Positions 4,375-59,207 of a DNA stretch of 64,000 nt are shown one piece after another. The DNA lies in the IMG/VR virus record IMGVR_UViG_3300009964_000001, positions 86,602-150,601 of that record; one strand, given 5' to 3'. Position 1 is the stretch's first letter; each line of letters opens with the position of its first letter. This DNA is from a virus. A program made the position numbers and the translations under genes. Under the pieces are notes generated by a model, which saw nothing but the letters and a program-made list of their open reading frames with translations, had not been told where the DNA came from and made no database searches.

Positions 4375-5100
4375 ATGGACATTATCAAAAATCTCGGTTA
4401 TAACCAACACGAGATTCTCGACAACATTCAGAAGTTGTACCTCGAAGGAAAGGGGATCGAATGTGACATCACTTATTCCAAAGGCGCATTCTACGGAAAG
4501 TTCAAAGTAAAAGACGCAGATGGTGAAGCACGTGATATCGTCATTGAGCAACCTCGACTGAAGTTCGATGTTTTCCCACTTTCCGAAGATGTCACAAAAA
4601 TAGAACCACTGACGGCACTTCCTCTCGATGATCTTTCGATCGAATCGATGATGATCGATCTGCCGTTCATCGTCAGACCAACAAAGCCAGATACGTCAGT
4701 CACTGATGAAACTGGGTCGAAGATGTTCAACAGATTTCAAGGTTTCCACACTCCAGACGACATGTATGAAACGTACTGGTTCTGGATCAATGAAGCCTAT
4801 CGTGTCTTGAAGGTCGGTGGAACGCTTTTGTTCAAGACACAGAACACGATTTATGGCGGTATCAACCACAACACTGAGTTTTTCTCATTCATGTGTGCCG
4901 AGAAAGCTGGATTTGTCACAGAAGACACCTTCGTTCTTGGCGCAAAGTCTCGCATGATCTCACCATTTATGACCAAGCAGTTACATGCTCGAAAGTTCAC
5001 CTCGACCTTCTTCGTTTTCAAGAAGCATAAATCTCAGAAGCACAAGAAGTTCAACTATTGGTCATTAATCCCAAAGCTTGAAGAATCTTTCAATAATTAA
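4375..5100 (+). CDS. Hypothetical protein (weak methyltransferase-like segment WFWINEAYRVLKVGGTLLF; no DPPY/FxGxG motifs)
   Basis: 241-aa ORF in operon context between frd and nrd; function not assignable. Confidence 0.5.
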   Translation: MDIIKNLGYNQHEILDNIQKLYLEGKGIECDITYSKGAFYGKFKVKDADGEARDIVIEQPRLKFDVFPLSEDVTKIEPLTALPLDDLSIESMMIDLPFIVRPTKPDTSVTDETGSKMFNRFQGFHTPDDMYETYWFWINEAYRVLKVGGTLLFKTQNTIYGGINHNTEFFSFMCAEKAGFVTEDTFVLGAKSRMISPFMTKQLHARKFTSTFFVFKKHKSQKHKKFNYWSLIPKLEESFNN

Positions 5101-8802: not shown

Positions 8803-9082
8803 ACTCAACCTTTTATCAATCCTTAAGGTGTTGGTAAAGCAGGAACTGGGAAATGTCACAGTCAATGGCAATCTCCTCAGTTATAACAGTGGCGTGGTGT
8901 CCAATAATGTCACAGGTCGTACATACAACGTCGTGGCAAACTACAATTCACTGAATCCAAATGTCGTATCTTGTATGTTCTCCACTTCACAGGGTACGAG
9001 CCATATGGTCTTCGTAAGAGGTCAAGAACGATTTGATCTTCTTCTGAAGCTCATGGAAGTATGTCAAGACAAGCAAATGTAA
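8795..9082 (+). CDS. Hypothetical protein
   Basis: ORF only. Confidence 0.3.
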   Translation: MNKLNLLSILKVLVKQELGNVTVNGNLLSYNSGVVSNNVTGRTYNVVANYNSLNPNVVSCMFSTSQGTSHMVFVRGQERFDLLLKLMEVCQDKQM

Positions 9083-9103
9083 CTTTTTAATTTCAATCCA
9101 AAT

Positions 9104-9367
9104 ATGACTAAGAAAGAATTCATCACAGCTCTCGCAGAGCAGACTGGTGCAACTAAGACGCAGGTAGAAGCCATCATCGGTGCTTATCACAAGACTATCA
9201 TCGAAAGTCTTAAGAAGGATGAGCCAGTGACCTTCGTTGGCTTCGGTACGTACTCATCCAGAGTTCGCCCAGAGCGTGAAGCCTTCAAGCCTGGTACTAA
9301 GGAAAAGATGACAGTACCTGCAAAGAAGGTCGGTAAGTTCAAGATGTCAAAGTCTGTAGAACTTTAG
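9104..9367 (+). CDS. hup: HU/IHF-family histone-like DNA-binding protein
   Basis: MTKKEFITALAEQTGATKTQVEAIIGAY...FGTYSSRVRPEREAFKPGT matches HU fold signature; 87 aa. Confidence 0.85.
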   Translation: MTKKEFITALAEQTGATKTQVEAIIGAYHKTIIESLKKDEPVTFVGFGTYSSRVRPEREAFKPGTKEKMTVPAKKVGKFKMSKSVEL

Positions 9368-9402
9368 TAGAAAAAGGAGATAAACGAATTCGCAATGAAC
9401 GG

Positions 9403-9440
9403 ATGGGCTGGTCTTTGGAAACATAGACCAGCCCATTTCG
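9403..9440 (+). terminator. Stem-loop after hup
   Basis: atgggctggtc...gaccagcccat. Confidence 0.5.
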
Positions 9441-9568
9441 TATAAAAATATCGACCAATCAGAAATATCGAAAATGACGACGGAATCGACACCGACGAAC
9501 ACATACGAATGCTTTCGATATAAAAATGGAAAGAACGAATTAATCAAATCAAACTTAATAAAGAACAA

Positions 9569-10990
9569 ATGAAAGCCAAGAAGCATCAAGTAGGCATGTT
9601 CGATCACATGTTCGAAAAGGGAAAGATCACGTTCTTGTTGGATGGTTATTCCGCAGGTTCATCTGGCAAAGGCAAGTGTGAATCTCTCATCGTAAAGAAC
9701 ACATCGTTCGGCACTGGGGATAAGCGTCTTGCAGTCTGTACCACGAACTCTGCAAATGCATCGCATTGGGTTTATGATGACGGCAAGAAGATGATGTTCG
9801 AAGTACTGCCTTCATCGGCTTATCTTCACGAAAAGCTCGAGTTCGTCGCTATCGGTCATGGTGCATCATTCTCCGTAGAAAGACTCTTCGAGGAAATCAA
9901 GATGAGTGGTCTTCCTCTCGATAAGCTCTTCATCCATCCCAAGGCAGGGATCATCACCAAGATCGATGAAGACTACGAAAAGGGTCTTTGTGATATCGAC
10001 GGCAACTATGGTTCATCCGATCACGATGGTACAATCGCAGGCGGATCTACTTGCTCTGGATCTGGTGCAGTTCGAGCAAAGAAGGTCGTAAGAAACAAGA
10101 CAGTGACTTATGCTTATCAAGTCCCAGAACTCAAGCAGTTCATCTGTGATGTCGAGAAGCGTCTTATGACGTTTATGCTTAACGGAGGATCAGTTCTTCT
10201 ACAGATTGGTCAAGGTTTCCCACTTTCGTATGGTCTCGGCTATAACAAGCAGAACTCAACAAGTCGAAACGTGACGATCAGTGCAGCTTTGGATGACATG
10301 AATCTTCCTCCATTTTTCGCAGGTGATGTTATCTTGAATGGTAGAACTTATCCGATCAAGATCAACAACAAGAAGTATCGTCTTCTCGGTGGGAAGCCAG
10401 TTGTCCGTCTTCACAAGAACTCGGAATCGACACTGAAGTATTATGCTCATAAGCATCTGTTCGACTTCATCGAAGGAGATGATCACGTTTCTATCGTCAC
10501 ACGTAAGGAATTCATTAACTTCTACGAAATGCGTGAGTTCCCCTACCTTGAATACGAGGTTATCGAATCGTTCAGTGGTACTGGCTATTCTCCAATCTGG
10601 AACGAAGAAAGTCACCAGCGAGAAATCACGTGGGAAGATGTCGAAAAGAACTATGGGAAGACGATTCCAGATGATGTAAAGTGCACGTCACTTACCAAGC
10701 TCCCTCGAAGAGTCTTTGAGTTTGATAAGAGCCTTCTGCACGACGGCATTCTCTACAATCTTTCTCCAAATGGCAAAACTCACATTGTCATCAACTTCGT
10801 CAACTGGGTAGATGGTGAAATGGACGGAGAACGTGAGAAGATCACGGAGAAGATAGAAGATTGGCTCTCCAAGAACATGTTCGCAGAAATCGACACTATC
10901 AACAAGCTGGTGGGTGATGAGAAGAAGGTAATACTTTCTGTACTCGGGACTGGTCGTGAATCCGACGACTTTGTCGCTGTAGAAGAGTAA
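9569..10990 (+). CDS. Adenylosuccinate synthetase (PurA)-family enzyme with variant P-loop; PurZ-like candidate
   Basis: Blocks align to PurA: LLDGYSAGSSGKGK (PurA GDEGKGK), NSANASHW (GGHNAGHT), GGSTCSGSGAVRAKKV (GTTGRGIGPAYEDKVAR), QIGQG (EGAQG); 473 aa. Confidence 0.8.
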   Translation: MKAKKHQVGMFDHMFEKGKITFLLDGYSAGSSGKGKCESLIVKNTSFGTGDKRLAVCTTNSANASHWVYDDGKKMMFEVLPSSAYLHEKLEFVAIGHGASFSVERLFEEIKMSGLPLDKLFIHPKAGIITKIDEDYEKGLCDIDGNYGSSDHDGTIAGGSTCSGSGAVRAKKVVRNKTVTYAYQVPELKQFICDVEKRLMTFMLNGGSVLLQIGQGFPLSYGLGYNKQNSTSRNVTISAALDDMNLPPFFAGDVILNGRTYPIKINNKKYRLLGGKPVVRLHKNSESTLKYYAHKHLFDFIEGDDHVSIVTRKEFINFYEMREFPYLEYEVIESFSGTGYSPIWNEESHQREITWEDVEKNYGKTIPDDVKCTSLTKLPRRVFEFDKSLLHDGILYNLSPNGKTHIVINFVNWVDGEMDGEREKITEKIEDWLSKNMFAEIDTINKLVGDEKKVILSVLGTGRESDDFVAVEE

Positions 10991-11017
10991 CTTCTTCTCC
11001 TTCAAGAACAATTAGAA

Positions 11018-11059
11018 AAATGAGGGTCATTGTGACAATAAGCACACAATGACCCTCAT
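11018..11059 (+). terminator. Stem-loop after PurA-like gene
   Basis: aatgagggtcattgtg...cacaatgaccctcatt. Confidence 0.55.
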
Positions 11060-11115
11060 TCTTGTTATAAGATTAATAAAAAACACAAGCCCACACCATT
11101 TCGAAAATCTTCATT

Positions 11116-11517
11116 ATGACAAAAGACGACTGCACAAGCATTAAGAAGATACTACGGATTTCTACGATAGTTTTCTTCGTTATCACAACGATCTACTTCA
11201 TTGTCGCAATTATGCGTATTGCGAACATAGGTGAAGAAAGCAAACCACACGAAATAATCGATTCGTTGAAATACACGAACTCTGTCTATGAACACGATGT
11301 TCGAAAGTTGAAAGCACAGATCGATTCACTTTCCATGCAAAACGAGATCTCTTCAAGAAAGATTGATTCACTTGAAAATGTCGTCGATGTGAAAACGTCT
11401 TCATTACGTAAAGCAGAGAGTGCAATGCGAGCAAAGAAGCTGAATTTCTCCAAAGACGTATTCGAAGTTGAACAAGAACTAAGACAAAACATAGCAGAAT
11501 ATGAAAAGAACAATTAG
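11116..11517 (+). CDS. Membrane-anchored coiled-coil protein (N-terminal TM helix)
   Basis: TM segment ISTIVFFVITTIYFIVAIM then heptad-rich region. Confidence 0.4.
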   Translation: MTKDDCTSIKKILRISTIVFFVITTIYFIVAIMRIANIGEESKPHEIIDSLKYTNSVYEHDVRKLKAQIDSLSMQNEISSRKIDSLENVVDVKTSSLRKAESAMRAKKLNFSKDVFEVEQELRQNIAEYEKNN

Positions 11518-11899
11518 CCTCTCGCTCTTGATACTTCTGTGTTGTACCACCAAAGCGTATTCTCAGAACATAGAAATCTCGAAGAAAGATGCTGTCATAA
11601 TCAACCACATGTTTGATCAACACAAGCAACTTCTGGAGATCTCCGCAATGAAGGATTCGATCATGCAGTCTTTGAGGGAAGTCGTGGACAACAATACACT
11701 CATCATCGAAAACCAACTTGAACAGCTCCGCAAATATGACGAGATGATGATGAAGAATGACACCATTATTTCCAATCATAAGAAGATGGCGGAGATCTAT
11801 GAAAAATCTCTGAAGAAGGAAAGACAGAAGTCAGCATTTTGGAAGTATGTCGGACTTCTTTCCTCTGCAGTGGCGATCACGTCATTTATCTTAAAGTAA
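11501..11899 (+). CDS. Secreted/lipoprotein-like coiled-coil protein with C-terminal TM
   Basis: Signal-like MKRTISLSLLILLCCTT, coiled coil, C-terminal hydrophobic tail. Confidence 0.4.
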   Translation: MKRTISLSLLILLCCTTKAYSQNIEISKKDAVIINHMFDQHKQLLEISAMKDSIMQSLREVVDNNTLIIENQLEQLRKYDEMMMKNDTIISNHKKMAEIYEKSLKKERQKSAFWKYVGLLSSAVAITSFILK

Positions 11900-11938
11900 C
11901 CTCTCCAGAGTGCAGGAAGGTATCTCCCTTGCACTCTG

Positions 11939-13276
11939 ATGTATACGAGAATATTTTCACCCCAATCAAATCAAGAAATGTCAAGGAACGTATCTCCTCT
12001 CGATCACAGGTATGCTGATGTCATACAGAACATGTCGAAAGTCTTTAATTCCGAAAGGTACTACAAGACGATGTGGAATGTAGAAGTCGAATACTTTCTT
12101 TACTTCTTAGAAAAGTTTGTACACCGAGAAGTGGACGGAGACCTCATAAGAAACAGTTGTAAGTTCGACAGTCTTGTCTACAACGAGATAATCTCCGAGG
12201 AAAGTGTAACACGGCACGATGTCAAGGCAGTTATCAATGTCTTACAGAACAAACTGGTCTTCCTTGAGAAATCTCAGAAAATCGAGAAAGTGTCGGTTTA
12301 TGTCCATTTCGGACTGACTTCCCAAGACATTGTTTCGTTATCGATGTCTATTCTCATGTCGGAAGCCATTGAAGTCATTGATCATGTCGTCAACTACACG
12401 GAAGCCATTCTCACAAATCTTCATCGAGAGACGAAGGATGTTTGGTCTCTATCAAGGACTCATGGACAATCTGCAGTTCCCCATCTTTTGAAAGACGACG
12501 TTTATAAGTGGAGGTACGATGTCTTGAAGTTTAGACGGCATATTGTCTATGATGTAGTCAAGTTCTCTGGGGCAGTTGGTAACAACTTCGCAATTTCGAG
12601 ACTTTTCAACATGGACGCTCGGAGAGTTGCGGAACTCATGGATTCGTTTGTGAAGAAGTTCGGAAGATTCACTGTTAGTGGAGAAGAATCGACACAAACC
12701 GACAGATGGGAATCGTTCTGTCAGAGATTTTCTGATTGGAATCTGGCCATTTCAAGGATCATCAGTGATGTGCAACAGATCTGGCAAATGTGCTCGGATG
12801 GTTATTTCAAACTGAAAGTGGACGATGGCTATTGCGGATCTTCGGCAATGCCACACAAGATCAACCCTATCAAGTTTGAAAACGCAGAAGGATGCTTCTG
12901 TAGATGTCAGAAAGACTTCGAGTTTTATATTAGTAAGTTATCGAAGTCAAGAATGCATCGTGATCTGTCGGATTCAGTGGTTATAAGAATGATCCCCGAG
13001 ACGTTGTCTTATCTTTATCTTGGATTCTCGTCGTTTGTAAGTGGTCTGAAAGCACTTGAGGTGAATACCGAGAAGATAAAAGACGACCTCGAAGAGAACT
13101 ATCAAGTGTTCTCCGAAATCGTACAGCTCTATCTGAAGTTGAAGGGAGATGAAGACGCATACGAAGAATCAAAGCGTGTGTTTAGAGGAAGCTCGATGAC
13201 ACTCTACGACTTCAAGAAAGCTATCAAAACTCTCGGTATTGAGTACGATGAAATCAAGAAGTTTATAGAACTTTAG
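11939..13276 (+). CDS. purB: Adenylosuccinate lyase
   Basis: Fumarate-lyase signature GSSAMPHKINPIKFENAEG (E. coli PurB GSSTMPHKVNPIDFENSEG); 445 aa. Confidence 0.85.
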   Translation: MYTRIFSPQSNQEMSRNVSPLDHRYADVIQNMSKVFNSERYYKTMWNVEVEYFLYFLEKFVHREVDGDLIRNSCKFDSLVYNEIISEESVTRHDVKAVINVLQNKLVFLEKSQKIEKVSVYVHFGLTSQDIVSLSMSILMSEAIEVIDHVVNYTEAILTNLHRETKDVWSLSRTHGQSAVPHLLKDDVYKWRYDVLKFRRHIVYDVVKFSGAVGNNFAISRLFNMDARRVAELMDSFVKKFGRFTVSGEESTQTDRWESFCQRFSDWNLAISRIISDVQQIWQMCSDGYFKLKVDDGYCGSSAMPHKINPIKFENAEGCFCRCQKDFEFYISKLSKSRMHRDLSDSVVIRMIPETLSYLYLGFSSFVSGLKALEVNTEKIKDDLEENYQVFSEIVQLYLKLKGDEDAYEESKRVFRGSSMTLYDFKKAIKTLGIEYDEIKKFIEL

Positions 13277-13293
13277 AGATTCACAAAACTCGT

Positions 13294-13345
13294 CGGTGAA
13301 GTCCTTTTGTTGGTGGTTACATAACAAAAGGACTTCACCGTTTTG
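13294..13345 (+). terminator. Rho-independent terminator after purB
   Basis: cggtgaagtcctttt...aaaaggacttcaccg + TTTTG. Confidence 0.6.
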
Positions 13346-13984
13346 TATATGGACTACCAACTCGTAATACCTTCACTAAAGCCAATATCTTACCAGTCAT
13401 TAGAAGCAAAGCAGACGATAAGGATTGATGATGAAGAAATCATCGACCTTTGTTCTGAATCGTTCTCAAAGACTGTTCCTATGGACTACACTTTACAGAT
13501 ATCGACGATTTCTGAAGATTTGAGTGGTAGACCTCATCTTGTCTCGAGGATTCTTATGGGATCAGAAGACGACGGAGATATCTTGATGCATTACAACCAC
13601 ATCTCGAATCCTTATTCAATGGATGGGACTTTCACATTCATAACACCAAACAGACAGACAGCAGTTGAAGCTATCAAGAAGTCAGCATCCTCTTCACAGA
13701 AGGAGAACGAATCTCAAGTAGAACTCAACAAGACTGTTGCGGAAAAGGATAAGAAGAGGATAATGGAACTCATAAGACAGTCCAATCCTCAGATGGTTTC
13801 GGAATCCACAACGCCAATCAGAACAACGAACATGACAACGAAGCCACAGACGGAAGAAAAGGATGGTGAAATCGTGTTTGGTACAAACGTTGTGTCGAAG
13901 AGATGTTCTGGTGACCTCTCTTCGACACAATCAAGAACGGAGATGATAAGAAGAACTATCCGTTCAATGGCTATTAAATCATAA
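13343..13984 (+). CDS. Hypothetical protein
   Basis: ORF only. Confidence 0.4.
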   Translation: MYMDYQLVIPSLKPISYQSLEAKQTIRIDDEEIIDLCSESFSKTVPMDYTLQISTISEDLSGRPHLVSRILMGSEDDGDILMHYNHISNPYSMDGTFTFITPNRQTAVEAIKKSASSSQKENESQVELNKTVAEKDKKRIMELIRQSNPQMVSESTTPIRTTNMTTKPQTEEKDGEIVFGTNVVSKRCSGDLSSTQSRTEMIRRTIRSMAIKS

Positions 13985-13990
13985 TAGCCG

Positions 13991-14470
13991 TTATTTTCCT
14001 TCTTCTTTCCAGAGTTCCTTTATTATTCCTTCGGAGAGGATCTCTTTTGCTTCATCCTCATCAAAAGAAAGCTCAACGATGTCTTTCACGACATCTTCTT
14101 TGGGTATGTTGTAAGATTGGGATAGGAAGTCGATGATGCTCTCGGGGATCATGTCGATTTCGACAGAAATGTTGAAAGAGATCTTTGACTTTACGCCATT
14201 CTTCACGATACCTATGACTTCATTCGGGAGGTTTAGCTTTCTTGGAGGAAGCTTGATGGCGTGAGATTCGTCACCACTTTCATAGATCATCATCTTCTGC
14301 CCATTGTTGTCTTCCTCTCCAGTTTCGTTTCTATGAAGCACTATCGTCTGACGAGGTTCTTCGTTTACAACCTCTCTTATATGTTCAGAAGGTGTCGTGA
14401 TTGGTATTCCGTTTTCATCAACTTCTAACGTGCTGTAGACATCCCACGCTTTGCTATTATTCTCTTCCAT
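13991..14470 (-). CDS. Hypothetical acidic protein (only sizeable minus-strand gene in this block)
   Basis: 159-aa ORF with clean intergenic boundaries. Confidence 0.45.
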   Translation of the reverse strand: MEENNSKAWDVYSTLEVDENGIPITTPSEHIREVVNEEPRQTIVLHRNETGEEDNNGQKMMIYESGDESHAIKLPPRKLNLPNEVIGIVKNGVKSKISFNISVEIDMIPESIIDFLSQSYNIPKEDVVKDIVELSFDEDEAKEILSEGIIKELWKEEGK

Positions 14471-14548
14471 ATTGATTGATCTTTCTTACTGGTTTCTTTT
14501 CTTATACTTTTAAATAATGAGAATTTTTGATCAAAAAAGAAACGAAAC

Positions 14549-15064
14549 ATGTTTGAACTTAGTAATATCAAGATCACAAAGTCTAAGGTCGATGAGAAAA
14601 GCATCGAATCTAACGGCTTTTGGTTTACACCTGTCAATGGTGAATTCAACACCGATGGTGTTGTAGAATTTATAACGAGTGAACTTGAAAGCCCTAAGTG
14701 GCTTGATGGTAAGACATTCTCATCTCTTAATCATCTCTTCGTCACGGAATCACAGACGAATCTCTTCATGGCTCTGTGTCCGTCTGTAGTCATTGATGGT
14801 TATTCGTTTGAACTGAAGTACAACCGCATCCTCGGTGGTCATCAGCTCCATGCCATAAAGGTAGAAGGTGAAGATATCGAAGAAGAACAGACTGAAACGG
14901 AAGATGCAAAGGAAGCAGAAGCCGTTAAGGAAACTGCAGAAGAAGCTAAGGAAAAGGAAGAAGAGACTGTAGAAGAATCTAAGGAAGTAGAAGAAAAGTC
15001 GGAAGAAAAGGTAGAAGAACCAAAGGAAAAGAAGACTACCGCACGCAAATCGACGAAGAAGTAA
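14549..15064 (+). CDS. Hypothetical protein with E/K-rich low-complexity C-terminal tail
   Basis: ORF; KEAEAVKETAEEAKEKEEETVEESKEVEEKSEEKVEEPKEKK tail. Confidence 0.45.
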   Translation: MFELSNIKITKSKVDEKSIESNGFWFTPVNGEFNTDGVVEFITSELESPKWLDGKTFSSLNHLFVTESQTNLFMALCPSVVIDGYSFELKYNRILGGHQLHAIKVEGEDIEEEQTETEDAKEAEAVKETAEEAKEKEEETVEESKEVEEKSEEKVEEPKEKKTTARKSTKK

Positions 15065-15186
15065 AAATCTCGTCGGTTTTGTTGATTGATTTGATTGATT
15101 AGTTTGAGGTCGCTATGTCGAGAAGATATGGCGACCTCGTCATATATAAGAATACCACAAATCAGTCATATTGATAACAATAAAAA

Positions 15187-15645
15187 ATGGATGAAAAAGT
15201 AAAAGAATACGAGCAATTTGTCGTTTCTTGCTTCAACGAGAATCCTACAAATAACAAGGTTCTCGACTTCATTCACATGACAATGGCACTTATGTCAGAA
15301 TCTGGTGAATTTGCTGATATAGTCAAGAAGGCGGTGTTCCATTCTAAGGAGATCTCGAAGGTTGATCTTGTAGACGAACTCGGTGATGTTCTGTTCTATT
15401 TCATGAACATTTGTCATTTCCTTGGTGTCACGATTGATGATGTCATGGAAGCAAACCTCATCAAGATCCGTGAAAGATATCCCGAAGGTCGTGGTAAGAA
15501 CTATAACTTCGGTACACGTAATAAGGCAGAAGAAAAGAAGAGAATAGAACAATTCTTGATGAAGATAAAGCAAGACGTGTCAATCGATATCAATATCAGC
15601 CAAATCAGCGGACATCAACATCAGTCTCAACACATAGGAAAGTAG
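15187..15645 (+). CDS. mazG: MazG-like nucleoside triphosphate pyrophosphohydrolase
   Basis: ESGEFADIVKK...ELGDVLFYFMNICHFLGVTIDDVMEANLIKIRERY matches MazG/NTP-PPase helix motifs (E..E...E..D). Confidence 0.8.
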   Translation: MDEKVKEYEQFVVSCFNENPTNNKVLDFIHMTMALMSESGEFADIVKKAVFHSKEISKVDLVDELGDVLFYFMNICHFLGVTIDDVMEANLIKIRERYPEGRGKNYNFGTRNKAEEKKRIEQFLMKIKQDVSIDINISQISGHQHQSQHIGK

Positions 15646-15647
15646 CC

Positions 15648-16475
15648 ATGATTCTTGTAACAATTCGGAACATCAACATAGAAGCATTCATCAGCTTCTT
15701 CAACGATATAGACATCAAGTCTAAGCAGGTGATTGATATCTACAAAACAGAAGATGGAAAGCATGAGATCGTCTCTCGTGGTCACACAATCACACGTGAC
15801 TTCGTGAAAGTCGTAGAATCAGACTTCGACGTAATGTGTCAAGAGATTGTCTCAAAGTCGGAATACAGCCACATCAAGATTCCGTTCATTGAAATCAAGA
15901 AGTTTGTGGAACTTCTAAAGATCTACACCGATGATGAGCAAGTGAACATCAATCTTTCGTGTGATGAAAAGGGAGAATCGCTTGTTGTGGTGAAACTTGA
16001 AGTGAAATCCAAGAGAAAGTCTTCGAGAATGCCAATGGCGGACATTTCTCTTGTTCCATATCTTCAGAAGGACATCTGGGAAAATCTGCTCCAAAGCACA
16101 GAAAGACTGTCATTCTTCGGTCTGTCTCAGAATGATGTCGTGGACGTGAAGAAGCTGATGAAGTATGCTTCGGAATCACAGGCATCAGCAAAGGTCAAGG
16201 AGATCTCAAAGTTTAGAGTGAAGTTCGAAGATGGACAGACCACGATTATGTCATATGAAGATCGATGGAACATTGACATCCCAACAGATGGTTCATTCAC
16301 TGGGGATTTCGTCTTCCCTGCTATTCTCTTCAAGCATCTCTCTTCAACGAACGTCTATAATTGCTCGTTCGTGAAAGCAATGGGTCGTGATACCAAGTTC
16401 CTAATCGTCTCGAATGAAACATTGAGAACCACGTGTGTTGTTATCGCAGAAAAATTCGATATCAACAAAAAATAA
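15648..16475 (+). CDS. Hypothetical protein immediately upstream of terminase (small-terminase position)
   Basis: Position only; no Walker A; 275 aa. Confidence 0.4.
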   Translation: MILVTIRNINIEAFISFFNDIDIKSKQVIDIYKTEDGKHEIVSRGHTITRDFVKVVESDFDVMCQEIVSKSEYSHIKIPFIEIKKFVELLKIYTDDEQVNINLSCDEKGESLVVVKLEVKSKRKSSRMPMADISLVPYLQKDIWENLLQSTERLSFFGLSQNDVVDVKKLMKYASESQASAKVKEISKFRVKFEDGQTTIMSYEDRWNIDIPTDGSFTGDFVFPAILFKHLSSTNVYNCSFVKAMGRDTKFLIVSNETLRTTCVVIAEKFDINKK

Positions 16476-16495
16476 GATAGATAACAATTTATAAG

Positions 16496-17638
16496 ATGAA
16501 TGAGGGTGTGCAAACTTTTGTGCATCCTCATTCATCTGTATTTTTCAAAGACTTCATGCGATACATTCTCGACAAACTGATAATAATCTTGACGATAATA
16601 CGATACAAACTTTGGAGATTTCCAATAAACGATGACGGAATAATTGATTCAGTCGTGCTTGATAACCACGAAACACTCACTATAAACGGTTGGAAGCCAC
16701 TTTCTTCAGTACACCTAAAAGCTGTTCATGACATTGTGGAAGTTGGTGCAGGTGAGTACAAGGTAAGTGGTTCTGTCAATCACCTCGTCTATTCTTCCAA
16801 GAACACGCTTGAAAGCTATCAGCCCACGAAAGTGAAGGATCTCTCTTTAGGTGATATCTTGATGACGATGGATGGTGCTCGCAAAGTCTCTTCACTCAAG
16901 AAGTCTCATCAGCAGATCGTGTTTGATTTATCTGTCGTGGATGAGACTTTGTCATATTTCTCGGACGGAATACTTTCCCACAACTCTGTAATGAGTGGTA
17001 TTTTTATTGCGTGGTACATCTTGACTAACTACGACAAGACCGTTCTTTGTACTAGTGCTAATGCAGACAAGGTCGATGAGCTTGTTGACAAGATTAACTC
17101 GATCTTCATGCATCTTCCGTTCTATATGAAGCTCGGGATTGAAGTTGATAATGTATCCAAGAAGAAATGGGACAACGGTTGCAAACTGATAGGTGAAACA
17201 GCGACTGAGAACTCTGGTGCAGGTGAAACCGCAGACCTCCTTTATGCTGACGAGTTTGCACTTATCGAACCTAACATAATCAACGAGTTCTTCCGTGTAG
17301 TTTATCCTACACTTTCGGCAAGTAAGAAATCGAAGATGATAATTACCAGCACGGCAAGAGGTATGAACAAGTTCTATCAGCTTTATCAAGATGCGCTTGA
17401 TGGTAAGAACAATTTCAACCCAATAAGAATCGACTGGTGGGAAGTAGAAGGCAGAGATGAACAATGGAGACTTGATCAGATAGCAGACCTCGGTTCTGAA
17501 GCAGACTTTAACCAAGAATACGGTAACTCGTTCATGAGCGGATCAACACTTCTTCTCTCCACTGCTGTCCTCAAGAAACTCGGGAAGTATCAGAAGAAGT
17601 TCGTAAATGGTGTGTTCTCGAATGACGGTTCTTTGTGA
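16496..17638 (+). CDS. Terminase large subunit, ATPase-domain fragment (gp17-like) preceded by intein-like Hint module
   Basis: After ...GILSHN|S the sequence aligns to T4 gp17 from residue 168 (SVMSGIFIAWYILTNYDK ~ TVVAIFLAHFVCFNKDK), Walker B LLYADEFA, C-motif IITSTARG; segment upstream of the P-loop is absent. Confidence 0.75.
   Translation: MNEGVQTFVHPHSSVFFKDFMRYILDKLIIILTIIRYKLWRFPINDDGIIDSVVLDNHETLTINGWKPLSSVHLKAVHDIVEVGAGEYKVSGSVNHLVYSSKNTLESYQPTKVKDLSLGDILMTMDGARKVSSLKKSHQQIVFDLSVVDETLSYFSDGILSHNSVMSGIFIAWYILTNYDKTVLCTSANADKVDELVDKINSIFMHLPFYMKLGIEVDNVSKKKWDNGCKLIGETATENSGAGETADLLYADEFALIEPNIINEFFRVVYPTLSASKKSKMIITSTARGMNKFYQLYQDALDGKNNFNPIRIDWWEVEGRDEQWRLDQIADLGSEADFNQEYGNSFMSGSTLLLSTAVLKKLGKYQKKFVNGVFSNDGSL
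16634..16984 (+). mobile_element. Mini-intein (Hint domain, about 117 aa) at terminase P-loop site
   Basis: Block A-like IIDSVVL, block B SGSVNHLVYS, block F VFDLSVVDETLSYF, block G GILSHN followed by Ser; no canonical Cys/Ser at position 1. Confidence 0.55.
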
Positions 17639-17679: not shown

Positions 17680-18507
17680 TTGCGGAAAATGGTAGAAGAT
17701 GTTCTCCTTGAATACGACCAGTACTTTTTCATACACCCCAACTTTGAACTTCAGTGGTTTAAAGATGAGCGCAATGCGTTCGTTCTATCAATAGACATTG
17801 CAGAAGGTAAAGGAGGTGACTACACGATCATCAACTTCTTCCAAGTCCTCCCAATGACACCTTCGGAAATTGAAGGTGTGAAAATCTTCAACGACGAAGA
17901 ATCATTCTTCAAGCTGGTGCAGGTTGCCATGTTTAGATCGAACATGGTAGAAACACCAGAATGTGCAAATTGGCTGTATCATTTCATAAACGGTTACATG
18001 ATACAGGACAACTTGAAGATCGTTATCGAGAACAACTTTGAAGGGAACTACTTCCGAAACACACTAATGAACATTTATGGAGAGCAGAATGAACTCGATG
18101 AAGATGTCATATTCTGCAAGTTTCTCTATAATGCTCGAGATGATAATGCTCGAACTTTCAGAGTCGGGATTTATCAAACAGAACCCCGAAAGCAACATTC
18201 TTGTAAGATATTCTCCGATCAACTGAAGAATAACCAGCTTGTTCTTACTGAGTTTATGACAATCCAAGAAGCTATGACCTTTGCACGATCAGAAAAATCA
18301 TCTTCATATCGTGCAAGCTCTGGCCATGACGACTGTGTTATGACGTGTGTCAACGTTGTAAACATTCGAGATATTGAAGAATGGTCAGAACTCGTGGAAA
18401 TTGTCAGTGAAAATTGCACAAACGAGTTTTGGAAACTGGTCGACAAGAAGCTCGGGAAACAAGCCGAAAGAAATGACGAACTCGACATATCAGACTATTA
18501 CGATTAA
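17680..18507 (+). CDS. Terminase large subunit nuclease domain (separate ORF)
   Basis: FVLSIDIAEGKGGDYTIINFF (gp17 [21 protein letters not shown]) and SSGHDDCVMTCV (gp17 GYHDDLVMSLV) RNaseH-like nuclease motifs. Confidence 0.75.
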   Translation: MRKMVEDVLLEYDQYFFIHPNFELQWFKDERNAFVLSIDIAEGKGGDYTIINFFQVLPMTPSEIEGVKIFNDEESFFKLVQVAMFRSNMVETPECANWLYHFINGYMIQDNLKIVIENNFEGNYFRNTLMNIYGEQNELDEDVIFCKFLYNARDDNARTFRVGIYQTEPRKQHSCKIFSDQLKNNQLVLTEFMTIQEAMTFARSEKSSSYRASSGHDDCVMTCVNVVNIRDIEEWSELVEIVSENCTNEFWKLVDKKLGKQAERNDELDISDYYD

Positions 18508-19193: not shown

Positions 19194-20690
19194 ATGATCA
19201 ATTGTAAACAGATCAGAGACAAGATGTCGGTGTCTTATTTCGACGAAAACGGAAACATTGCGATATCTGACATAACAATAGACGATCGTGAAAAGTACGT
19301 ATGGACAAAGACAACCGAAGATGACAAGTTTCGAGACAAGACTTACGTATCTCAAGACGGATTCCCTGTGAAAAAAGAACGTAAGTCCTATCTCGACAAA
19401 TATCGCAAGATCGAGTTCTTGCTGTCTCTACCAGAACGTTTACAAGCGAAGATTTTCTCAAACAATCAGCCACGTAAGTTCTTCTGGGATATTGAAACAG
19501 AAGTTTTTGATGACTTCCCCGATGCTGGGAATCCTGTTGGGAGAATCTTCACGCATCAGTATTGTGATGAGTTCGGCAATGGTACTGTCATGGGCATCAA
19601 GCCACTTTCACAGACACAAATCGACTCTATCGAACAGAAGATCAACGACTATCTCTCACAGATCACCGATAAGACGCTTCATCAGAGATATAAGTTCCGT
19701 TACATTTACTACCCCGATGAGTTCACGATGAACAAAGACTTCGTCGAGAATCATGCAACAAAGATGCCGTGTATTTTCGGATGGAACGTGCTGAAGTTCG
19801 ATACAAGATACCTCGTCAACAGGTGTAAAAAGACGAACATTGATCCTACAATTCTCTCACCAAAGAGAATGCTTTACTCGACGATTGCGAAAGATAAGTT
19901 CGACCATTCATCGAAAATTGAAATCGAACTTCCTCTTCATCGACCAATCATCGACTACATGCAAATCTTCGAATTCTTTGATAGATCGATTAAACAGAAG
20001 TCATCAATGTCGCTCGATTTCATCGCATCAGAAATCCTTGGTGTCAAGAAGATCCATCATTCCGAAACTCTGATGGAACTCTATGAGAAGGACTATGAAC
20101 GTTACGTGCTTTATGGTATCATCGATACGTTCCTCGTGGCATTGATCGACAAGAAGTGTAGAACATTTGAATCAATGAGCGTTCTTGCAAATCTCCTACG
20201 TGTCGAAGTTGCACAGTCTATGTTCGTTAGTGTCGGGATCGAAACACTCTTGTGTGACTACTATTACAAGCATTACAACAAGGTGTTTGTAAAGGACTAT
20301 GACAAGCAGATTCCCGAAGGTGAAACTTATAGCGCAGGATTCGTTCTACAACCAGGTATTGGTGTTTATGATGGTATCGTCATCTATGACTACGAATCAT
20401 TGTTCCCTTCAATCATGCAGATGTTGAACGTCGGTGAAGATGTTTACCTCGGTCATACCGATGATCAAGGGAAAACCTACGTGGACAAACTCGGAGAAGA
20501 ACACGAACTTGACGAGACGATGTGCTATTCATCCAGTGGTGCAGTTTACTCGAAAAACAGAGATTCCGCAATTCGAACGATGATTTCGAACATGTTCAAT
20601 AAACGAGTAGAAGCAAAACACAAGGAAGCAGAAATCAAAGCAGATATTAATCACTTAAAGCAGATATTAAAAGATAACTTCGGACATTAA
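19194..20690 (+). CDS. Family-B DNA polymerase, N-terminal part only (3'-5' exonuclease domain + motif A)
   Basis: Exo I FWDIETE, Exo II GWNVLKFDTRYL, Exo III YVLYGIIDT, motif A DYESLFPSIM; ORF stops about 90 aa after motif A, motifs B/C absent. Confidence 0.8.
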   Translation: MINCKQIRDKMSVSYFDENGNIAISDITIDDREKYVWTKTTEDDKFRDKTYVSQDGFPVKKERKSYLDKYRKIEFLLSLPERLQAKIFSNNQPRKFFWDIETEVFDDFPDAGNPVGRIFTHQYCDEFGNGTVMGIKPLSQTQIDSIEQKINDYLSQITDKTLHQRYKFRYIYYPDEFTMNKDFVENHATKMPCIFGWNVLKFDTRYLVNRCKKTNIDPTILSPKRMLYSTIAKDKFDHSSKIEIELPLHRPIIDYMQIFEFFDRSIKQKSSMSLDFIASEILGVKKIHHSETLMELYEKDYERYVLYGIIDTFLVALIDKKCRTFESMSVLANLLRVEVAQSMFVSVGIETLLCDYYYKHYNKVFVKDYDKQIPEGETYSAGFVLQPGIGVYDGIVIYDYESLFPSIMQMLNVGEDVYLGHTDDQGKTYVDKLGEEHELDETMCYSSSGAVYSKNRDSAIRTMISNMFNKRVEAKHKEAEIKADINHLKQILKDNFGH

Positions 20691-20693
20691 AAG

Positions 20694-20951
20694 ATGGAAA
20701 TAAAACTGTTAGGAAAGAAGATACTCATAAAGCTCAATGAGGTCGAAAAGCAGGTCGATGGCTTCGAACTGGTACAACACAACGATGTAGACCAAACCGC
20801 AGGTGTTGTCTCGAATGTTGGGATAGGTGTTACAGAAGTCAAAGTCGGTGACAAAGTGATCGTCAACAAGTTCTCTGGTATTGAGGTTCTTATCGAAGGT
20901 GATAAGTTCAAGGTAGTAGAGGAACACGAAATATTAATCATTGTAAGATAG
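20694..20951 (+). CDS. groES: Co-chaperonin GroES (Cpn10)
   Basis: KILIKLNEVEKQ...VKVGDKVIVNKFSGIEV...EHEILIIV aligns along full GroES. Confidence 0.8.
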   Translation: MEIKLLGKKILIKLNEVEKQVDGFELVQHNDVDQTAGVVSNVGIGVTEVKVGDKVIVNKFSGIEVLIEGDKFKVVEEHEILIIVR

Positions 20952-20956
20952 ACTGA

Positions 20957-22546
20957 ATGAACGCTGTAGACATTAAAAGCGGATCAGAAGCCAGAGAACT
21001 GATCCTTATTGGTGCAAAGAAGATCCATGACGCTGTAGGATCAACACTGGGACCTGGTGGTCGAAATGTCATCATCAAGCACAACACGTACGATGTACCA
21101 CAGGTCACTAAAGATGGTGTGACTGTAGCAAGAAAGATGAAGCTACAGAACTATTGGCACAACATTGGCTGTCAGCTCGTAAAGCAGGCATCAATGCGAA
21201 CAGCAGTTGATGCAGGTGATGGAACAACTTCCTCTGTCGTCATGGCGTACACGATGATGAAGCTGATCGATGAACTTCTTGAGGAAAATCCTGATATCGA
21301 TGTTCACCGACTTCGTCATGAGATGGAGAAGATGAAAGATGTCCTCATTGAACGACTTCGGGAAATCTCCACACCAATCGTTGATATTCAGCAGGTGTTC
21401 GATATTGCAAAGATCTCTACGAACAACGATGAGAAACTTGCAGGGTTACTTTCCGAGATTTATGGGAAGATTGGTAAAGATGGGATAATCGTTCTCGAAC
21501 AATCACAACTTTCGAATATCACCTATTCGATCGAATCTGGATTCCGATTTGACGGAGGATGGCAATCTCACTATTTCGTAAAGGACAAGTCAAAGATGTC
21601 GTTCGAATCTGACGATTGTGCAATCTTCATCACAAATCACAAGATCCAAGACGGCAAGACAATGCTGAATGCGCTTTCAAGGATCTACGGCACAGGTGTC
21701 CGTGATCTACTGATCATTGCGGAAAATATCGAAGGTGAAGCGTTATCGACTTTGATCGCCAATAATCAGAGTGGAAAGATGAACATTTGTCTTGTCAATC
21801 CTCCGTATTATGGACAGAAGCGTGAAGAATACCTCACTGACCTCTCCATTTCGCTTGGTATGAAGCCACTTATGGTGGGAGATCAGTCCGTGTCACCTCT
21901 CTCGTTTACAGAAGAGTACTTCTCTTGCGGTCGAAGCGTCTTTGTGGATAAAAGCACCACGACGATCAGAAATGACAAGGAAAGTGTATCGTCTGCAGTC
22001 GAAGAGCATATTTCGAATCTGAAGTCTCTTATGGATTCTGAAGATGAAGACAAGGAATGGATCGAAAAGAGAATAGCGACCTTAAGATCATCAGTTGCCG
22101 TCATAAAAGTTGGTGGTAATTCTGAATCTGAGGTTTATGAACACAAGGACAGACTTGAGGATGCGATTTGTGCTATAAGATCGGCATACAAGGACGGCAT
22201 AGTTGCAGGTTGTGGCATTACGTACATACGACTAATCTCTGCGCTTGATCCTTCTCTTGACACGTTCCATATCTTGAAATCTGGACTTGAATCCGTGTTC
22301 AAGAAGATAATGGACAACTCGTGCATATCAGAAGAAGAAAGATCATCGATTCTCTACTTTGTTGCCGAAGATGAAGGATACGGTTATGATGCCAAGAAGC
22401 GTGAGAAGTCGTACAATTCGATCAGAGATGGTATCATTGACTCGGCACGTGTTATAAAAAACTGTATCGAGAATTCGATATCTGTCGCTATCATGTTCAT
22501 GATCTCTGACAACATAGTCATGGAAATCGATGAATCGATAATCTAA
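20957..22546 (+). CDS. groEL: Chaperonin GroEL (Cpn60)-like
   Basis: AVGSTLGPGGRNVII, DAGDGTTSSVVMA (GroEL AGDGTTTATVLA), 529 aa. Confidence 0.85.
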   Translation: MNAVDIKSGSEARELILIGAKKIHDAVGSTLGPGGRNVIIKHNTYDVPQVTKDGVTVARKMKLQNYWHNIGCQLVKQASMRTAVDAGDGTTSSVVMAYTMMKLIDELLEENPDIDVHRLRHEMEKMKDVLIERLREISTPIVDIQQVFDIAKISTNNDEKLAGLLSEIYGKIGKDGIIVLEQSQLSNITYSIESGFRFDGGWQSHYFVKDKSKMSFESDDCAIFITNHKIQDGKTMLNALSRIYGTGVRDLLIIAENIEGEALSTLIANNQSGKMNICLVNPPYYGQKREEYLTDLSISLGMKPLMVGDQSVSPLSFTEEYFSCGRSVFVDKSTTTIRNDKESVSSAVEEHISNLKSLMDSEDEDKEWIEKRIATLRSSVAVIKVGGNSESEVYEHKDRLEDAICAIRSAYKDGIVAGCGITYIRLISALDPSLDTFHILKSGLESVFKKIMDNSCISEEERSSILYFVAEDEGYGYDAKKREKSYNSIRDGIIDSARVIKNCIENSISVAIMFMISDNIVMEIDESII

Positions 22547-26345: not shown

Positions 26346-26384
26346 TAATCGTCACAAATAAAAAAATCATAATAGGAAAAGAAA

Positions 26385-26780: not shown

Positions 26781-26813
26781 TCTCACGTTTGTACATAAAG
26801 AAATCGTAAAACA

Positions 26814-27203: not shown

Positions 27204-27218
27204 AAGAGAAAAAGAAAC

Positions 27219-27620: not shown

Positions 27621-27666
27621 CACAAGTTTGTATATAAAGAAATATTAATAAGAAGAAAGAAGAAAT

Positions 27667-38243: not shown

Positions 38244-39002
38244 ATGGGAAAAAGAAAGAAGATACAAGAAAAATTCAAGAAGCTGAAGAAATCTGGATGC
38301 CTTAAGGACATCGCATCGATCAGAAATACGAATCCCGAAATGATGGGCAAAGGAGTGACTGTTACAAATATGGCAGACACTTTCAACCTCTTCGATTTCA
38401 AGGCAGAGAACATAAACATTCATGCGATCGGAAGATCACTGTCGAATCAATGCAGATACAATGGATCGACGAACGGATTCTACTCTGTTGCACAACATTG
38501 CGTTCGTATGGCAGAATCGGCTTATCTCTCTTATGGTGATGTTCGACTTGCGCTTGCAATACTCATTCACGATGCGACAGAATGCTATGTTTCCGATATT
38601 CCTTACACGTTGAAGAGAGAACTTCCCGATCATATCAAGCAAATCGAAAAGGACATCGAAAAGGTGATTTTCTCACACTTTGGTGTTGAAGAATACTTTG
38701 ATTCAAAGCTAATCAAGTTCATCGACACACAAATCTGTAACGATGAACTTGAATTCCTTCTTGGTCAACAGATCGGAATCGACGAGTATCTTTCGGATAA
38801 ACTCAGAGATCTCGACAATCGTGATTGGTCACGTGGTGGTATTCATCCATACGAGAAACCACTCATGTTTGAGTTTGACTATTGGTCTCCAGAGAAAGCA
38901 TATGAACAGTTCATCTCTCACTTCTATAAGTACACTTACCTCGTCGAAAAATATAAGGACAAGGAAGTACTGACGAAGTTTGGGGTAAACACCGAGAAAT
39001 AA
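38244..39002 (+). CDS. HD-domain phosphohydrolase (YfbR/DatZ-like dNTP/dNMP hydrolase)
   Basis: First His in SVAQHCV, HD dyad in LAILIHDATECYVSDIP, downstream Asp residues. Confidence 0.75.
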   Translation: MGKRKKIQEKFKKLKKSGCLKDIASIRNTNPEMMGKGVTVTNMADTFNLFDFKAENINIHAIGRSLSNQCRYNGSTNGFYSVAQHCVRMAESAYLSYGDVRLALAILIHDATECYVSDIPYTLKRELPDHIKQIEKDIEKVIFSHFGVEEYFDSKLIKFIDTQICNDELEFLLGQQIGIDEYLSDKLRDLDNRDWSRGGIHPYEKPLMFEFDYWSPEKAYEQFISHFYKYTYLVEKYKDKEVLTKFGVNTEK

Positions 39003-58241: not shown

Positions 58242-59207
58242 TCATTTAGTCGTAGTTTGTTTCTTCTTGATGATTATCCTAAAATAAGAACATTTCCCAT
58301 TCACAGATAAACATTTCCCATCGTTTCCCTTTCTGGAACCCACAATCTCAAATTGGCGTGGATCGAATTTATGTAAGAATGTTATCGGAACTCCCATATA
58401 ACCACTGTAATCTCGTGGTATGTCCTTAGTCCTATCAACATTTATACCATCATAATTGTCATATTTGGGATATTCATGTTCATGTCCATAGTAGCTTTTG
58501 GTAAGCGAGATCTCTTTATGTCGCATAAAGTTGTCCAAATTCGTAAGCCACAGACAATTGTTGGTAGATACAATCCTGTTACCAGATTCGTCTATCCTTG
58601 TTTCTGTTCCGTAGAGTTCATAATGAGCTGGTACAACAAACCCAGAAAATCCTCTCGCAATATTCACACCAAGCCATGCCTTACCCTCTTGAATGAGCTT
58701 GAAAATCTCTTTATAAGTGATGGCGTTGATATTCCCAATAATGAGAAAGAGCTTATCGTATATGACTAATTGTGCCACATACTCACGGAACAACGAAAAT
58801 GGTGGATTGGTAACAACTATGTCAGATTGTTCCAGCAAGTCGATACTTTCTTGACTACGAAAGTCGCCATCGCCCTTGAAGTGGACAACATTGGCGGTCT
58901 TAGGATCTGCATCAACAAGTTCTGTCCCTGTGTATTCAAAGAAAAAGCCACGACTGTTTTCCTTATAACAAGATGCAATTACCTTCTTAAGTCCCAATTC
59001 TTTGAAATTAGAAACGAAGTATCTGAAAAAGTTACTCGTCAAAGGATCATCACAATTGCAATACACAACTTTCCCCTTAAAATGGCTTTCATAATGTCGC
59101 AATTCTCTTTCGATATCAATAAGTTGCGTGTAGAACTCGTCGTTCTTCTGCTTTTTAGCCTTCTGAAGCAACTCGTTAGTAACCTTTCTTACCATACTTC
59201 GATTCAA
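58242..59207 (-). CDS. N6-adenine DNA methyltransferase (gamma-class-like)
   Basis: NDEFYTQ (xEFYTP-like) near N-terminus and catalytic IVVTNPPFSL motif. Confidence 0.6.
   Translation of the reverse strand: MNRSMVRKVTNELLQKAKKQKNDEFYTQLIDIERELRHYESHFKGKVVYCNCDDPLTSNFFRYFVSNFKELGLKKVIASCYKENSRGFFFEYTGTELVDADPKTANVVHFKGDGDFRSQESIDLLEQSDIVVTNPPFSLFREYVAQLVIYDKLFLIIGNINAITYKEIFKLIQEGKAWLGVNIARGFSGFVVPAHYELYGTETRIDESGNRIVSTNNCLWLTNLDNFMRHKEISLTKSYYGHEHEYPKYDNYDGINVDRTKDIPRDYSGYMGVPITFLHKFDPRQFEIVGSRKGNDGKCLSVNGKCSYFRIIIKKKQTTTK

Follow-up and report, generated by a model that had tools for sequence, protein, structure and literature searches.

The 64,000-nucleotide stretch analyzed here (positions 86,602-150,601 of the IMG/VR record IMGVR_UViG_3300009964_000001; hereafter "the window") belongs to a T4-like myovirus with a genome of about 150 kb. 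It encodes a 473-amino-acid long-form PurZ-like synthetase (PurZ-L) and, downstream of it, an adenylosuccinate lyase (PurB). As judged from its residues, its phylogeny and its best solved relative, PurZ-L is an enzyme of the PurZ lineage and not a PurA (adenylosuccinate synthetase). The best explanation of its sequence is that it represents a previously uncharacterized long-form subfamily of PurZ, the synthetase of the 2-aminoadenine (Z) pathway. We propose, with a probability of roughly 0.6, that PurZ-L and PurB form a phage-encoded two-step route from dGMP to dZMP, that this route feeds a T4-type replisome, and that adenine in the phage DNA is at least partly replaced by Z. The synthetase gene and its key segments are as follows.

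9569..10990, plus strand: long-form PurZ-like synthetase (PurZ-L), 473 amino acids; assigned by Pfam PF00709, phrog_1211, diagnostic residues, neighbor-joining (NJ) trees and AlphaFold2 (AF2)/Foldseek.
9656..9676, plus strand: P-loop GSSGKGK, with Ser31 in place of the catalytic Asp13 of PurA; equivalent to S14 of phiVC8 PurZ and S23 of S-2L PurZ.
10367..10573, plus strand: insert of about 70 amino acids (residues 267-335), a predicted small alpha/beta subdomain; from the alignment and AF2 secondary structure.
10685..10711, plus strand: motif TSLTKLPRR, in which T373 corresponds to phiVC8 T262 and S-2L T273, and L378 stands at the position of PurA Arg303.
10793..10807, plus strand: base pocket N-F-V-N-W, corresponding to N294-F295-C296-N297-Y298 of phiVC8 PurZ; ATP-type.

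The original prediction for this DNA had described a 473-amino-acid PurA homolog with GSSGKGK in its P-loop at 9569-10990. Both the gene and the motif, which occupies residues 30-36, were confirmed. The Pfam model Adenylsucc_synt (PF00709) gave 34 bits with PurZ-L against a cut-off of 27. Among proteins with solved structures, the best relative was phiVC8 PurZ, a deoxyguanylosuccinate synthase (E = 2.6e-16, 62.7 bits), followed by S-2L PurZ (44 bits) and the archaeal PurA from Pyrococcus (36.8 bits); no bacterial PurA was found among the solved relatives at E < 0.01. When a collection of 50,697 phage records was searched, the best match was a protein of MaF61, a 167.8-kb myovirus (39.5% identity over 97% of the length), and every other match was from a known PurZ or Z-genome phage. 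The PHROGs assignment was phrog_1211, the PurZ family. In contrast, the purA model TIGR00184 gave only 45 bits against a cut-off of 395.

To read individual positions, we aligned PurZ-L with 12 reference sequences (among them PurA from E. coli and from P. horikoshii, two PurZ0 sequences and six PurZ) and 191 relatives from databases. The positions read were those given in the literature as discriminating PurZ from PurA, and conservation was counted over 97 members of the clade of long proteins to which PurZ-L belongs. Ser stands at the position of PurA Asp13 in all 97 members. T373, W355 and Y340 of PurZ-L correspond to T262, W252 and Y244 of phiVC8 PurZ, and the T262 equivalent is kept in 95 of the 97. 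The segment TKLPRR is identical in S-2L and PMBT28, and its Leu stands where PurA has Arg303, the residue that contacts the 2'-OH of IMP (residue roles are from PMC8342488 and bioRxiv 10.1101/2025.10.22.683976). As to the check proposed in the original prediction, of the residues around the 2'-OH of IMP as against dGMP, the alignment predicts that the Arg303 contact would be lost at Leu378. The guanine pocket of PurA, with Lys331 and Asp333, is replaced in PurZ-L by N409-F410-V-N412-W413. In the clade this pocket is strongly conserved (N in 95, F in 96 and the second N in 94 of the 97, with an aromatic residue or His at the last position in every member); the corresponding motif is T-K-L-D in PurA and T-M-L-D in PurZ0.

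The extra length of PurZ-L comes from an insert of 12 amino acids before the GST loop, the 70-amino-acid subdomain and a longer C-terminal helix. In the alignment, the subdomain occupies the site of the 9-amino-acid insert specific to PurZ (A242-W250 in S-2L PurZ; PMC8342488), after the Val/Ile (here Ile265) that abuts C2' of dGMP. Across the clade, the insert after this 2'-gating residue is 30-70 amino acids long.

NJ trees were calculated from 358 columns and 69 taxa with 100 bootstraps. In these trees, which rest on a distance method and two PurA outgroups only, the long proteins were monophyletic in 100/100 bootstraps, and 98/100 placed PurZ-L with ATP-type PurZ and left PurZ0 and PurA outside. 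The phylogeny against PurA, archaeal PurA and PurZ that the original prediction had called for therefore places the protein on the PurZ side. An AF2 model calculated with 88 clade sequences had a pLDDT of 95.5, and its top Foldseek match was phiVC8 PurZ with dGMP (6tnh; TM score 0.86). Pyrococcus PurA ties at a TM score of 0.86, so that PurZ and archaeal PurA cannot be told apart by fold alone.

A word-index search returned 259 proteins of the long clade, which fall into 44 clusters at 50% identity (E < 1e-30). These proteins have 401-500 amino acids, versus 330-390 for canonical PurZ. They were found only in phages, on contigs of 45-340 kb, and MaF61 is a cultured member. In a scan of 185,579 cellular genomes the family was essentially absent: six weak matches in metagenome-assembled genomes were obtained, and these did not point to a host. 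Over 88 clade sequences at about 40% identity, 33 columns are invariant and about 40 nearly invariant, and all phosphate- and base-binding positions are among the conserved columns. Several homologs in the clade have 750-820 amino acids with Pfam matches to LAGLIDADG and intein-splicing domains; they are intein-containing synthetases.

The second enzyme of the proposed route is encoded downstream of PurZ-L.

11939..13276, plus strand: phage adenylosuccinate lyase (PurB), 445 amino acids; Pfam Lyase_1 and ASL_C.

An intact lyase carrying GSSAMPHKINP had been predicted here, and the domains, the motifs and the structural matches bear this out. The motif SRTHGQ with the catalytic His is at residues 172-177 and GSSAMPHKINP is at residues 300-310, and among solved structures, adenylosuccinate lyases match it best (E = 2e-53). 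The NCBIfam purB models were the top matches but remained below their equivalog cut-offs (267.5 versus 446); therefore, this PurB is a divergent member of the family. Two small plus-strand open reading frames (ORFs) for predicted membrane or coiled-coil proteins (133 and 132 amino acids) lie between purZ-L and purB at 11116-11899, and a longer minus-strand ORF that overlaps them is probably spurious.

We then examined whether the pairing recurs. IMG/VR was scanned with a profile of the clade, 79 loci were kept with 10-kb flanks, and a panel of proteins was searched in these and in added loci (labels of the form L0xx denote loci from IMG/VR or assemblies that carry long-form or canonical PurZ genes). 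Six near-identical IMG/VR contigs have PurB next to PurZ-L, as do the window and a relative with 66% identity. The two genes are no more than 10 kb apart in the window lineage and in L011, L026-30, L033-35 and L058, and 10 kb apart in MaF61. Among other real phage records, PurB was found in MaF61 only; the remaining matches were unannotated fragments or bacterial-looking records. Six loci (L034, L035, L050 and L056-58) have a guanylate-kinase family gene no more than 10 kb from PurZ-L, and Pfam confirmed this gene in L034, L056 and L058; MaF61 carries a guanylate kinase as well. An adenosine-deaminase family gene is immediately upstream of PurZ-L in L012, while L013, L070 and L075 have one in the vicinity, and a dCMP deaminase gene is nearby in four long-clade loci. 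In profile searches of all ORFs of the 64-kb window, neither guanylate kinase nor adenosine deaminase was found. Two of the adenosine-deaminase genes were located precisely.

L012, 9006-9998: adenosine-deaminase family gene (PF00962).
L013, 1206-2159: adenosine-deaminase family gene (PF00962; up to 185 bits among these genes).

L012 and L013 are phage-like contigs of 260-277 kb from the NCBI assemblies GCA_040384425.1 and GCA_040384245.1.

In Z phages the host turns dSMP, the product of PurZ, into dZMP and then dZTP. Reportedly, PurB, guanylate kinase and nucleoside diphosphate kinase carry out these conversions. Since phages of the long clade repeatedly encode these next steps, it is hard to accept that their synthetase serves to make AMP.

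We infer the following route. PurZ-L would convert dGMP, Asp and ATP to N6-succino-2-amino-dAMP (dSMP), and PurB would split dSMP into dZMP and fumarate. Guanylate kinase and nucleoside diphosphate kinase would then raise dZMP to dZTP; in the window phage these would be supplied by the host, and in MaF61 and other relatives the kinase step would be phage-encoded. The T4-type family-B DNA polymerase (PolB) would put dZ opposite T, for which the replicase would have to accept dZTP. Adenine nucleotides would probably be lowered by a route that differs from that of known Z phages: the candidates are a MazG enzyme (dNTP to dNMP) together with an HD-type dNMP phosphatase in the window phage, and adenosine deaminase, a possible alternative step of adenine removal, in some relatives. 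Because the route of adenine exclusion would differ, the replacement of A by Z could be complete or partial. According to bioRxiv 10.1101/2025.10.22.683976, a dZ phage genome is one with a PurZ homolog that carries S14. By this definition the window phage would be a dZ phage, because its PurZ homolog has the S14 equivalent.

The frequencies of restriction sites in the DNA were also inspected. Some palindromic 4-mers are strongly avoided in the window (observed/expected: CCGG 0/42, CGCG 1/37, GGCC 6/31 and CTAG 7/80), and MaF61 shows the same extreme avoidance of CCGG (1/122), CGCG (0/78) and GGCC (1/148). GCGC and most palindromic 4-mers that contain A or T are not avoided, as a modification of A or T would predict; the comparison covered the window and MaF61. 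However, several 6-mers that contain A are missing: GACGTC, GAGCTC and GGTACC are absent from both the window and MaF61, and GGATCC is absent from the window. According to published reports, dZ blocks AatII and BamHI at least in part.

Several observations weigh against Z replacement in this phage, and they concern the synthetase, its partners and the rest of the genome. First, NCBIfam NF038379 (amino_Aden_PurZ) is the top-ranked model for PurZ-L but scores 85.4 bits against a cut-off of 300, and the archaeal-type PurA model NF003295 follows at 82 bits, only 3.5 bits lower. Because 85 bits is far below 300, PurZ-L lies outside the NCBIfam PurZ family by the curated criterion (the MaF61 protein scores 145 bits with NF038379). 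Moreover, the clade has its own residues next to the pocket, namely Ala for F12, Ser in the motif N-A-S-H (69/97) and Lys for P144. At the F12 position, Ala is present in PurZ-L and in 69 of the 97 members, and Phe in 17. In S-2L PurZ, the equivalent residue contacts the base with its backbone only (PMC8342488). Because these positions and the 70-amino-acid insert differ from canonical PurZ, the substrate of PurZ-L could differ as well.

Second, the usual partners are missing. No DatZ, MazZ/DUF550, DutZ/DmtZ or DpoZ was found within 10 kb of the long-clade genes in about 66 loci (L011-L080). In contrast, 14 of 17 canonical short PurZ loci (L082-L098) have DatZ and/or DUF550/MazZ, and most also have the PolA-type polymerase DpoZ. 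The window encodes two enzymes of comparable type.

15187..15645, plus strand: MazG-family NTP pyrophosphohydrolase; Pfam MazG 40.8 bits against a cut-off of 22, phrog_229 at 3.9e-30.
38244..39002, plus strand: HD-domain phosphohydrolase, YfbR-like dNMP phosphatase family; phrog_318 at 7.8e-45.

The metal motifs ExxE and ExxD are present in the MazG protein, and its synteny is kept in L011 and L020-L025. However, phrog_229 is a generic MazG-like family, the nearest relatives are in cyanophages, Alteromonas, Bacillus and other non-Z phages, and S-2L MazZ and the DUF550 protein of PMBT28 belong to phrog_9147/4826/801. The pairwise match of the window MazG with S-2L MazZ covers 34 residues. The HD protein has the H..HD motifs with a sub-threshold Pfam HD score (18.8 versus 22). 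Its family, phrog_318, is annotated as "deoxyribonucleoside 5'-monophosphate phosphatase" and occurs widely in phages whose DNA is ordinary (SfV and Stx phages, for example). All four DatZ proteins tested are in phrog_7076, the DatZ family of about 170-195 amino acids encoded next to purZ, to which the window HD protein has no match, and BLASTP aligns it with DatZ only around the HD motif. ORF97 of MaF61 is its ortholog (37.5% identity) and is also in phrog_318. About 27 kb separate the HD gene from the purZ-L/purB pair, with which it is not clustered.

The original prediction had seen in these genes a mirror of the PurZ/PurB/MazZ/DatZ set. The MazG and HD genes exist where they had been placed, as Pfam MazG and phrog_318 testify, and a PurZ-lineage enzyme is indeed paired, recurrently, with an intact PurB. 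The correspondence to MazZ and DatZ did not hold, since the two proteins belong to other PHROGs families. We rejected orthology of the window HD with DatZ and of the window MazG with MazZ because their similarity to the S-2L and phiVC8 proteins and to solved structures is at the level of motifs. The two enzymes could nevertheless act in the pathway, in analogy to the DutZ/DmtZ pair used by PurZ0 phages: MazG is a candidate supplier of dGMP (from dGTP) and/or scavenger of dATP (to dAMP), and the HD protein is a candidate for the removal of dAMP.

Third, other genes of the window fit poorly with a genome without adenine. The ribonucleotide reductase would keep making dADP, and two DNA methyltransferases are encoded.

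58242..59207, minus strand: EcoRI-type N6-adenine DNA methyltransferase; Pfam PF13651, 413 bits.
4375..5100, plus strand: second DNA methyltransferase (N6/N4 type); weak Pfam N6_N4_Mtase match, phrog_24333 at 1.9e-32.

On fully Z-substituted DNA these enzymes would be largely redundant. GAATTC is not avoided in the window (34 observed, 27 expected). No orthologs of the two methyltransferases were found in MaF61; for the EcoRI-type gene, this suggests an accessory island. This gene is flanked by six tRNA genes (Gln, His, Ser, Tyr, Met and Lys) in a minus-strand block of lower GC content at 56731-62026. Finally, in E. coli the genes purZ, mazZ and datZ alone gave 9-28% substitution; thus, incomplete machinery leads to partial replacement.

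A stronger form of our proposal is that T4-like PolB phages of about 150-190 kb from Bacteroidota, including recurrent human-associated ones, package genomes fully substituted with 2-aminoadenine, by way of PurZ-L, PurB and in some cases guanylate kinase, with MazG and the HD protein or adenosine deaminase in place of DatZ and DpoZ. We regard this as a tentative idea that is more likely wrong than right. According to a passage in PMC8065100, S-2L reaches full substitution with a non-selective PrimPol polymerase, so a non-selective polymerase would suffice for a Z genome.

Among the explanations that compete with Z replacement, the one that survives best is that PurZ-L is a PurZ-derived enzyme with altered chemistry, acting on GMP, dIMP or another 2-substituted purine, or that dZ is formed partially or at the level of the nucleotide pool, and that the phage does not have a classical Z genome. 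We consider this unlikely but worth serious attention. It would account for the changed residues near the pocket (Ala for F12 and N-A-S-H, each in 69/97) and the inserts of 12 and 30-70 amino acids, and it sits well with two absences, that of any known enzyme for removing dATP and that of a polymerase selective for Z, with the methyltransferases and ribonucleotide reductase, and with the 9-28% obtained in E. coli. However, the residues reported to read the 2-amino group (the equivalents of S14 and T262) are invariant or nearly so, and the recurrent neighbors, PurB and guanylate kinase, are the next steps toward dZTP. The S-2L polymerase described in the passage of PMC8065100 also speaks against the need for a Z-selective enzyme.

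The original prediction had offered another alternative, a purine salvage or AMP booster: a phage PurA would make adenylosuccinate from IMP, PurB would complete AMP, and the DNA would contain ordinary adenine. With the adenosine deaminase of the relatives, this would amount to a purine nucleotide cycle. PurA and PurB are the canonical pair from IMP to AMP, an adenosine-deaminase family gene adjoins the synthetase in some relatives, DatZ and DpoZ are lacking while adenine methyltransferases are encoded, and the sources label the protein "adenylosuccinate synthetase". However, all PurA-specific residues that we examined, catalytic or specificity-determining, are replaced (Asp13 by Ser, Arg303 by Leu and Lys331/Asp333 by Phe/Asn), and therefore we consider salvage improbable. 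A GDEGKG motif was found in none of 264 sequences examined (205 of them with a detectable P-loop), drawn from libraries that hold billions of proteins, and the 260 closest relatives include no protein of the GDEGKG type. The grouping with PurZ in 98/100 bootstraps excludes PurA, and the kinase associated with the synthetase in relatives is a guanylate kinase and not an adenylate kinase, which fits AMP synthesis poorly. A decaying, non-functional PurA relic carried passively, as the weak scores against curated models might suggest, was rejected as extremely improbable because of the strong conservation of the clade, and the AF2 model is confident and the gene intact in hundreds of metagenomic genomes.

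Z replacement in this phage would take place in a T4-type replication system. The T4-like character and the family-B polymerase named in the original prediction are borne out by matches to the gp23 major capsid protein, gp32, UvsX, the N-terminal half of PolB and a TerL of T4 type; a gp41-type helicase, the gp44 clamp loader and a Dda/PIF1 helicase are also encoded. Genes of nucleotide metabolism (thymidylate synthase, dihydrofolate reductase (DHFR) and the ribonucleotide reductase mentioned above) and GroEL/GroES complete the picture. IMG/VR contains six near-identical contigs of 145-151 kb. Members of the 90% protein cluster of the window PurZ-L are found on many metagenomic contigs of 143-150 kb, where the source annotation is "adenylosuccinate synthetase". 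Because megablast of positions 9000-17000 against the phage collection gave no match, there is no close sequenced isolate. Shine-Dalgarno motifs precede 7% of the window genes versus a background of 8.8%, and the leaders are A-rich. Since Shine-Dalgarno motifs are thus lacking, the leaders are A-rich and the sole cultured relative, MaF61, infects Flavobacterium sp. B330, a Bacteroidota host is likely.

The polymerase and the genes next to it are as follows.

19194..20690, plus strand: N-terminal half of a T4-type family-B DNA polymerase; Pfam DNA_pol_B and DNA_pol_B_exo1.
20694-22546, plus strand: GroES-like (85 amino acids) and GroEL-like (529 amino acids) chaperonin pair; MaF61 has the pair too.

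The PolB part comprises the exonuclease domain and the start of the polymerase domain and matches residues 16-543 of the 994-amino-acid PolB of MaF61. It is directly followed by the chaperonin genes; the C-terminal half is absent within the window, and therefore the polymerase gene is split. No PolA or DpoZ was found in the window. TerL is likewise divided into two consecutive plus-strand ORFs, 16496-17638 (N-terminal ATPase) and 17680-18507 (C-terminal nuclease), which both match the single 623-amino-acid TerL of MaF61. The N-terminal part of TerL from one relative has a faint intein-splicing match, and the two-ORF arrangement may reflect a gene split, an intron or the remnant of an intein.

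Two further observations were made in the window. Two adjacent plus-strand ORFs are related to DHFR: 2012-3064 (350 amino acids) has a weak N-terminal DHFR match only, and 3076-3954 (292 amino acids) has a full DHFR domain with a C-terminal extension of about 125 amino acids. At 25935-30336 on the plus strand there is a tandem array of ten paralogous ORFs for small acidic proteins (113-154 amino acids, pairwise identity 25-59%), whose common motifs are "MTxxEYI..L.D..LI.AYI" at the N-terminus and "GYYF" at the C-terminus; GC skew is unusually high in this region. The three array proteins tested had no Pfam match. They may be DNA-mimic or anti-defense proteins.

So far, the phages shown to have 2-aminoadenine DNA are all small siphoviruses or podoviruses that infect Pseudomonadota, Cyanobacteriota and Actinomycetota, and they use PolA-type DpoZ or PrimPol polymerases. 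In the literature we found nothing relevant on PurZ in myoviruses, T4-like phages or Flavobacterium phages. The enzyme lineage and its chemistry are known, and the architecture of the subfamily, the type of virus, the polymerase family, the host phylum and the accessory genes are new; Z-containing DNA may exist in this class of large phages, for which we found no report of it. If our proposal is correct, the known range of Z would come to include large myoviruses with T4-type replisomes, Bacteroidota as hosts and phages that recur in metagenomes, and the pathway could be built with a phage PurB and guanylate kinase in the absence of DatZ or DpoZ. A family-B polymerase and T4-type replication proteins would then tolerate dZTP, a property of practical interest in the production of Z-DNA. 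If substitution were full, this would be a third independent solution for a Z genome, with none before it in large myoviruses. Even if it is partial or absent, several hundred viral annotations as "adenylosuccinate synthetase" are misleading and merit revisiting. A member of the clade, MaF61, is in culture.

Finally, we compared PurZ-L and its genome with known systems. The short archaeal PurA of Pyrococcus horikoshii (PDB 2D7U / 5K7X) matches PurZ-L in fold and comes close in NCBIfam score, as described above. Unlike PurZ-L, it keeps GDEGKG, the Arg303 equivalent and a guanine pocket (TMLD).

PurZ0 (Arthrobacter phage Wayne and Gordonia phages; PDB 7VF6) shares with PurZ-L the P-loop Ser and the equivalents of W252 and T262. 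It keeps the PurA-type Asp in the base pocket, has GSEAKG and branches outside the ATP-type PurZ, among which PurZ-L is placed. PurZ0 uses GTP. The phages that encode it have a non-canonical accessory set with no DatZ or MazZ; therefore, Z pathways can be completed by different enzymes.

The PurZ of phiVC8 (PDB 6FM1, 6FKO and 6TNH) and that of S-2L (7ODX) have the same fold as PurZ-L in the short, archaeal-type architecture. Common to all three are the P-loop Ser, the equivalents of T262, W252 and Y244, TK(L/K)(P/V)RR without Arg303, the ATP-type pocket N-F-x-N-aromatic and the insertion after the Val/Ile that faces C2'. Identity is 27-31%, and BLAST aligns the N-terminal half only. PurZ-L is 100-130 amino acids longer, owing to the 70-amino-acid subdomain, the 12-amino-acid insert and the longer C-terminal helix, and it differs in Ala for F12, in Ser of N-A-S-H and in falling below the NCBIfam cut-off. 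The window phage is a 150-kb PolB myovirus, whereas known PurZ occur in siphoviruses or podoviruses of 40-80 kb with PolA or PrimPol, and its purZ-L is not flanked by DatZ, MazZ and DpoZ, unlike canonical PurZ. The Z-clusters of S-2L, phiVC8, PMBT28 and SH-Ab 15497-like phages have an HD hydrolase and a MazG-fold enzyme, and so does the window genome; in the latter, however, these belong to phrog_318 instead of phrog_7076 and to phrog_229 instead of phrog_9147/4826/801, they are not clustered with purZ, and PolA is absent.

MaF61 (PQ858689, 167.8 kb) is the nearest counterpart. Its genes are given in the record and the paper only as "putative adenosuccinate synthetase/lyase", with Z unmentioned, and the paper discusses neither these genes nor DNA modification. 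In contrast to the window, MaF61 has a phage guanylate kinase, a purB that is 10 kb from purZ-L, Phe in place of Ala at the F12 position and no orthologs of the window methyltransferases. Its ORF141 is a PurZ-like protein of the same long clade and its ORF149 is PurB, and like the window phage it is T4-like with PolB, its own PurB, an HD ortholog and a MazG-like gene.

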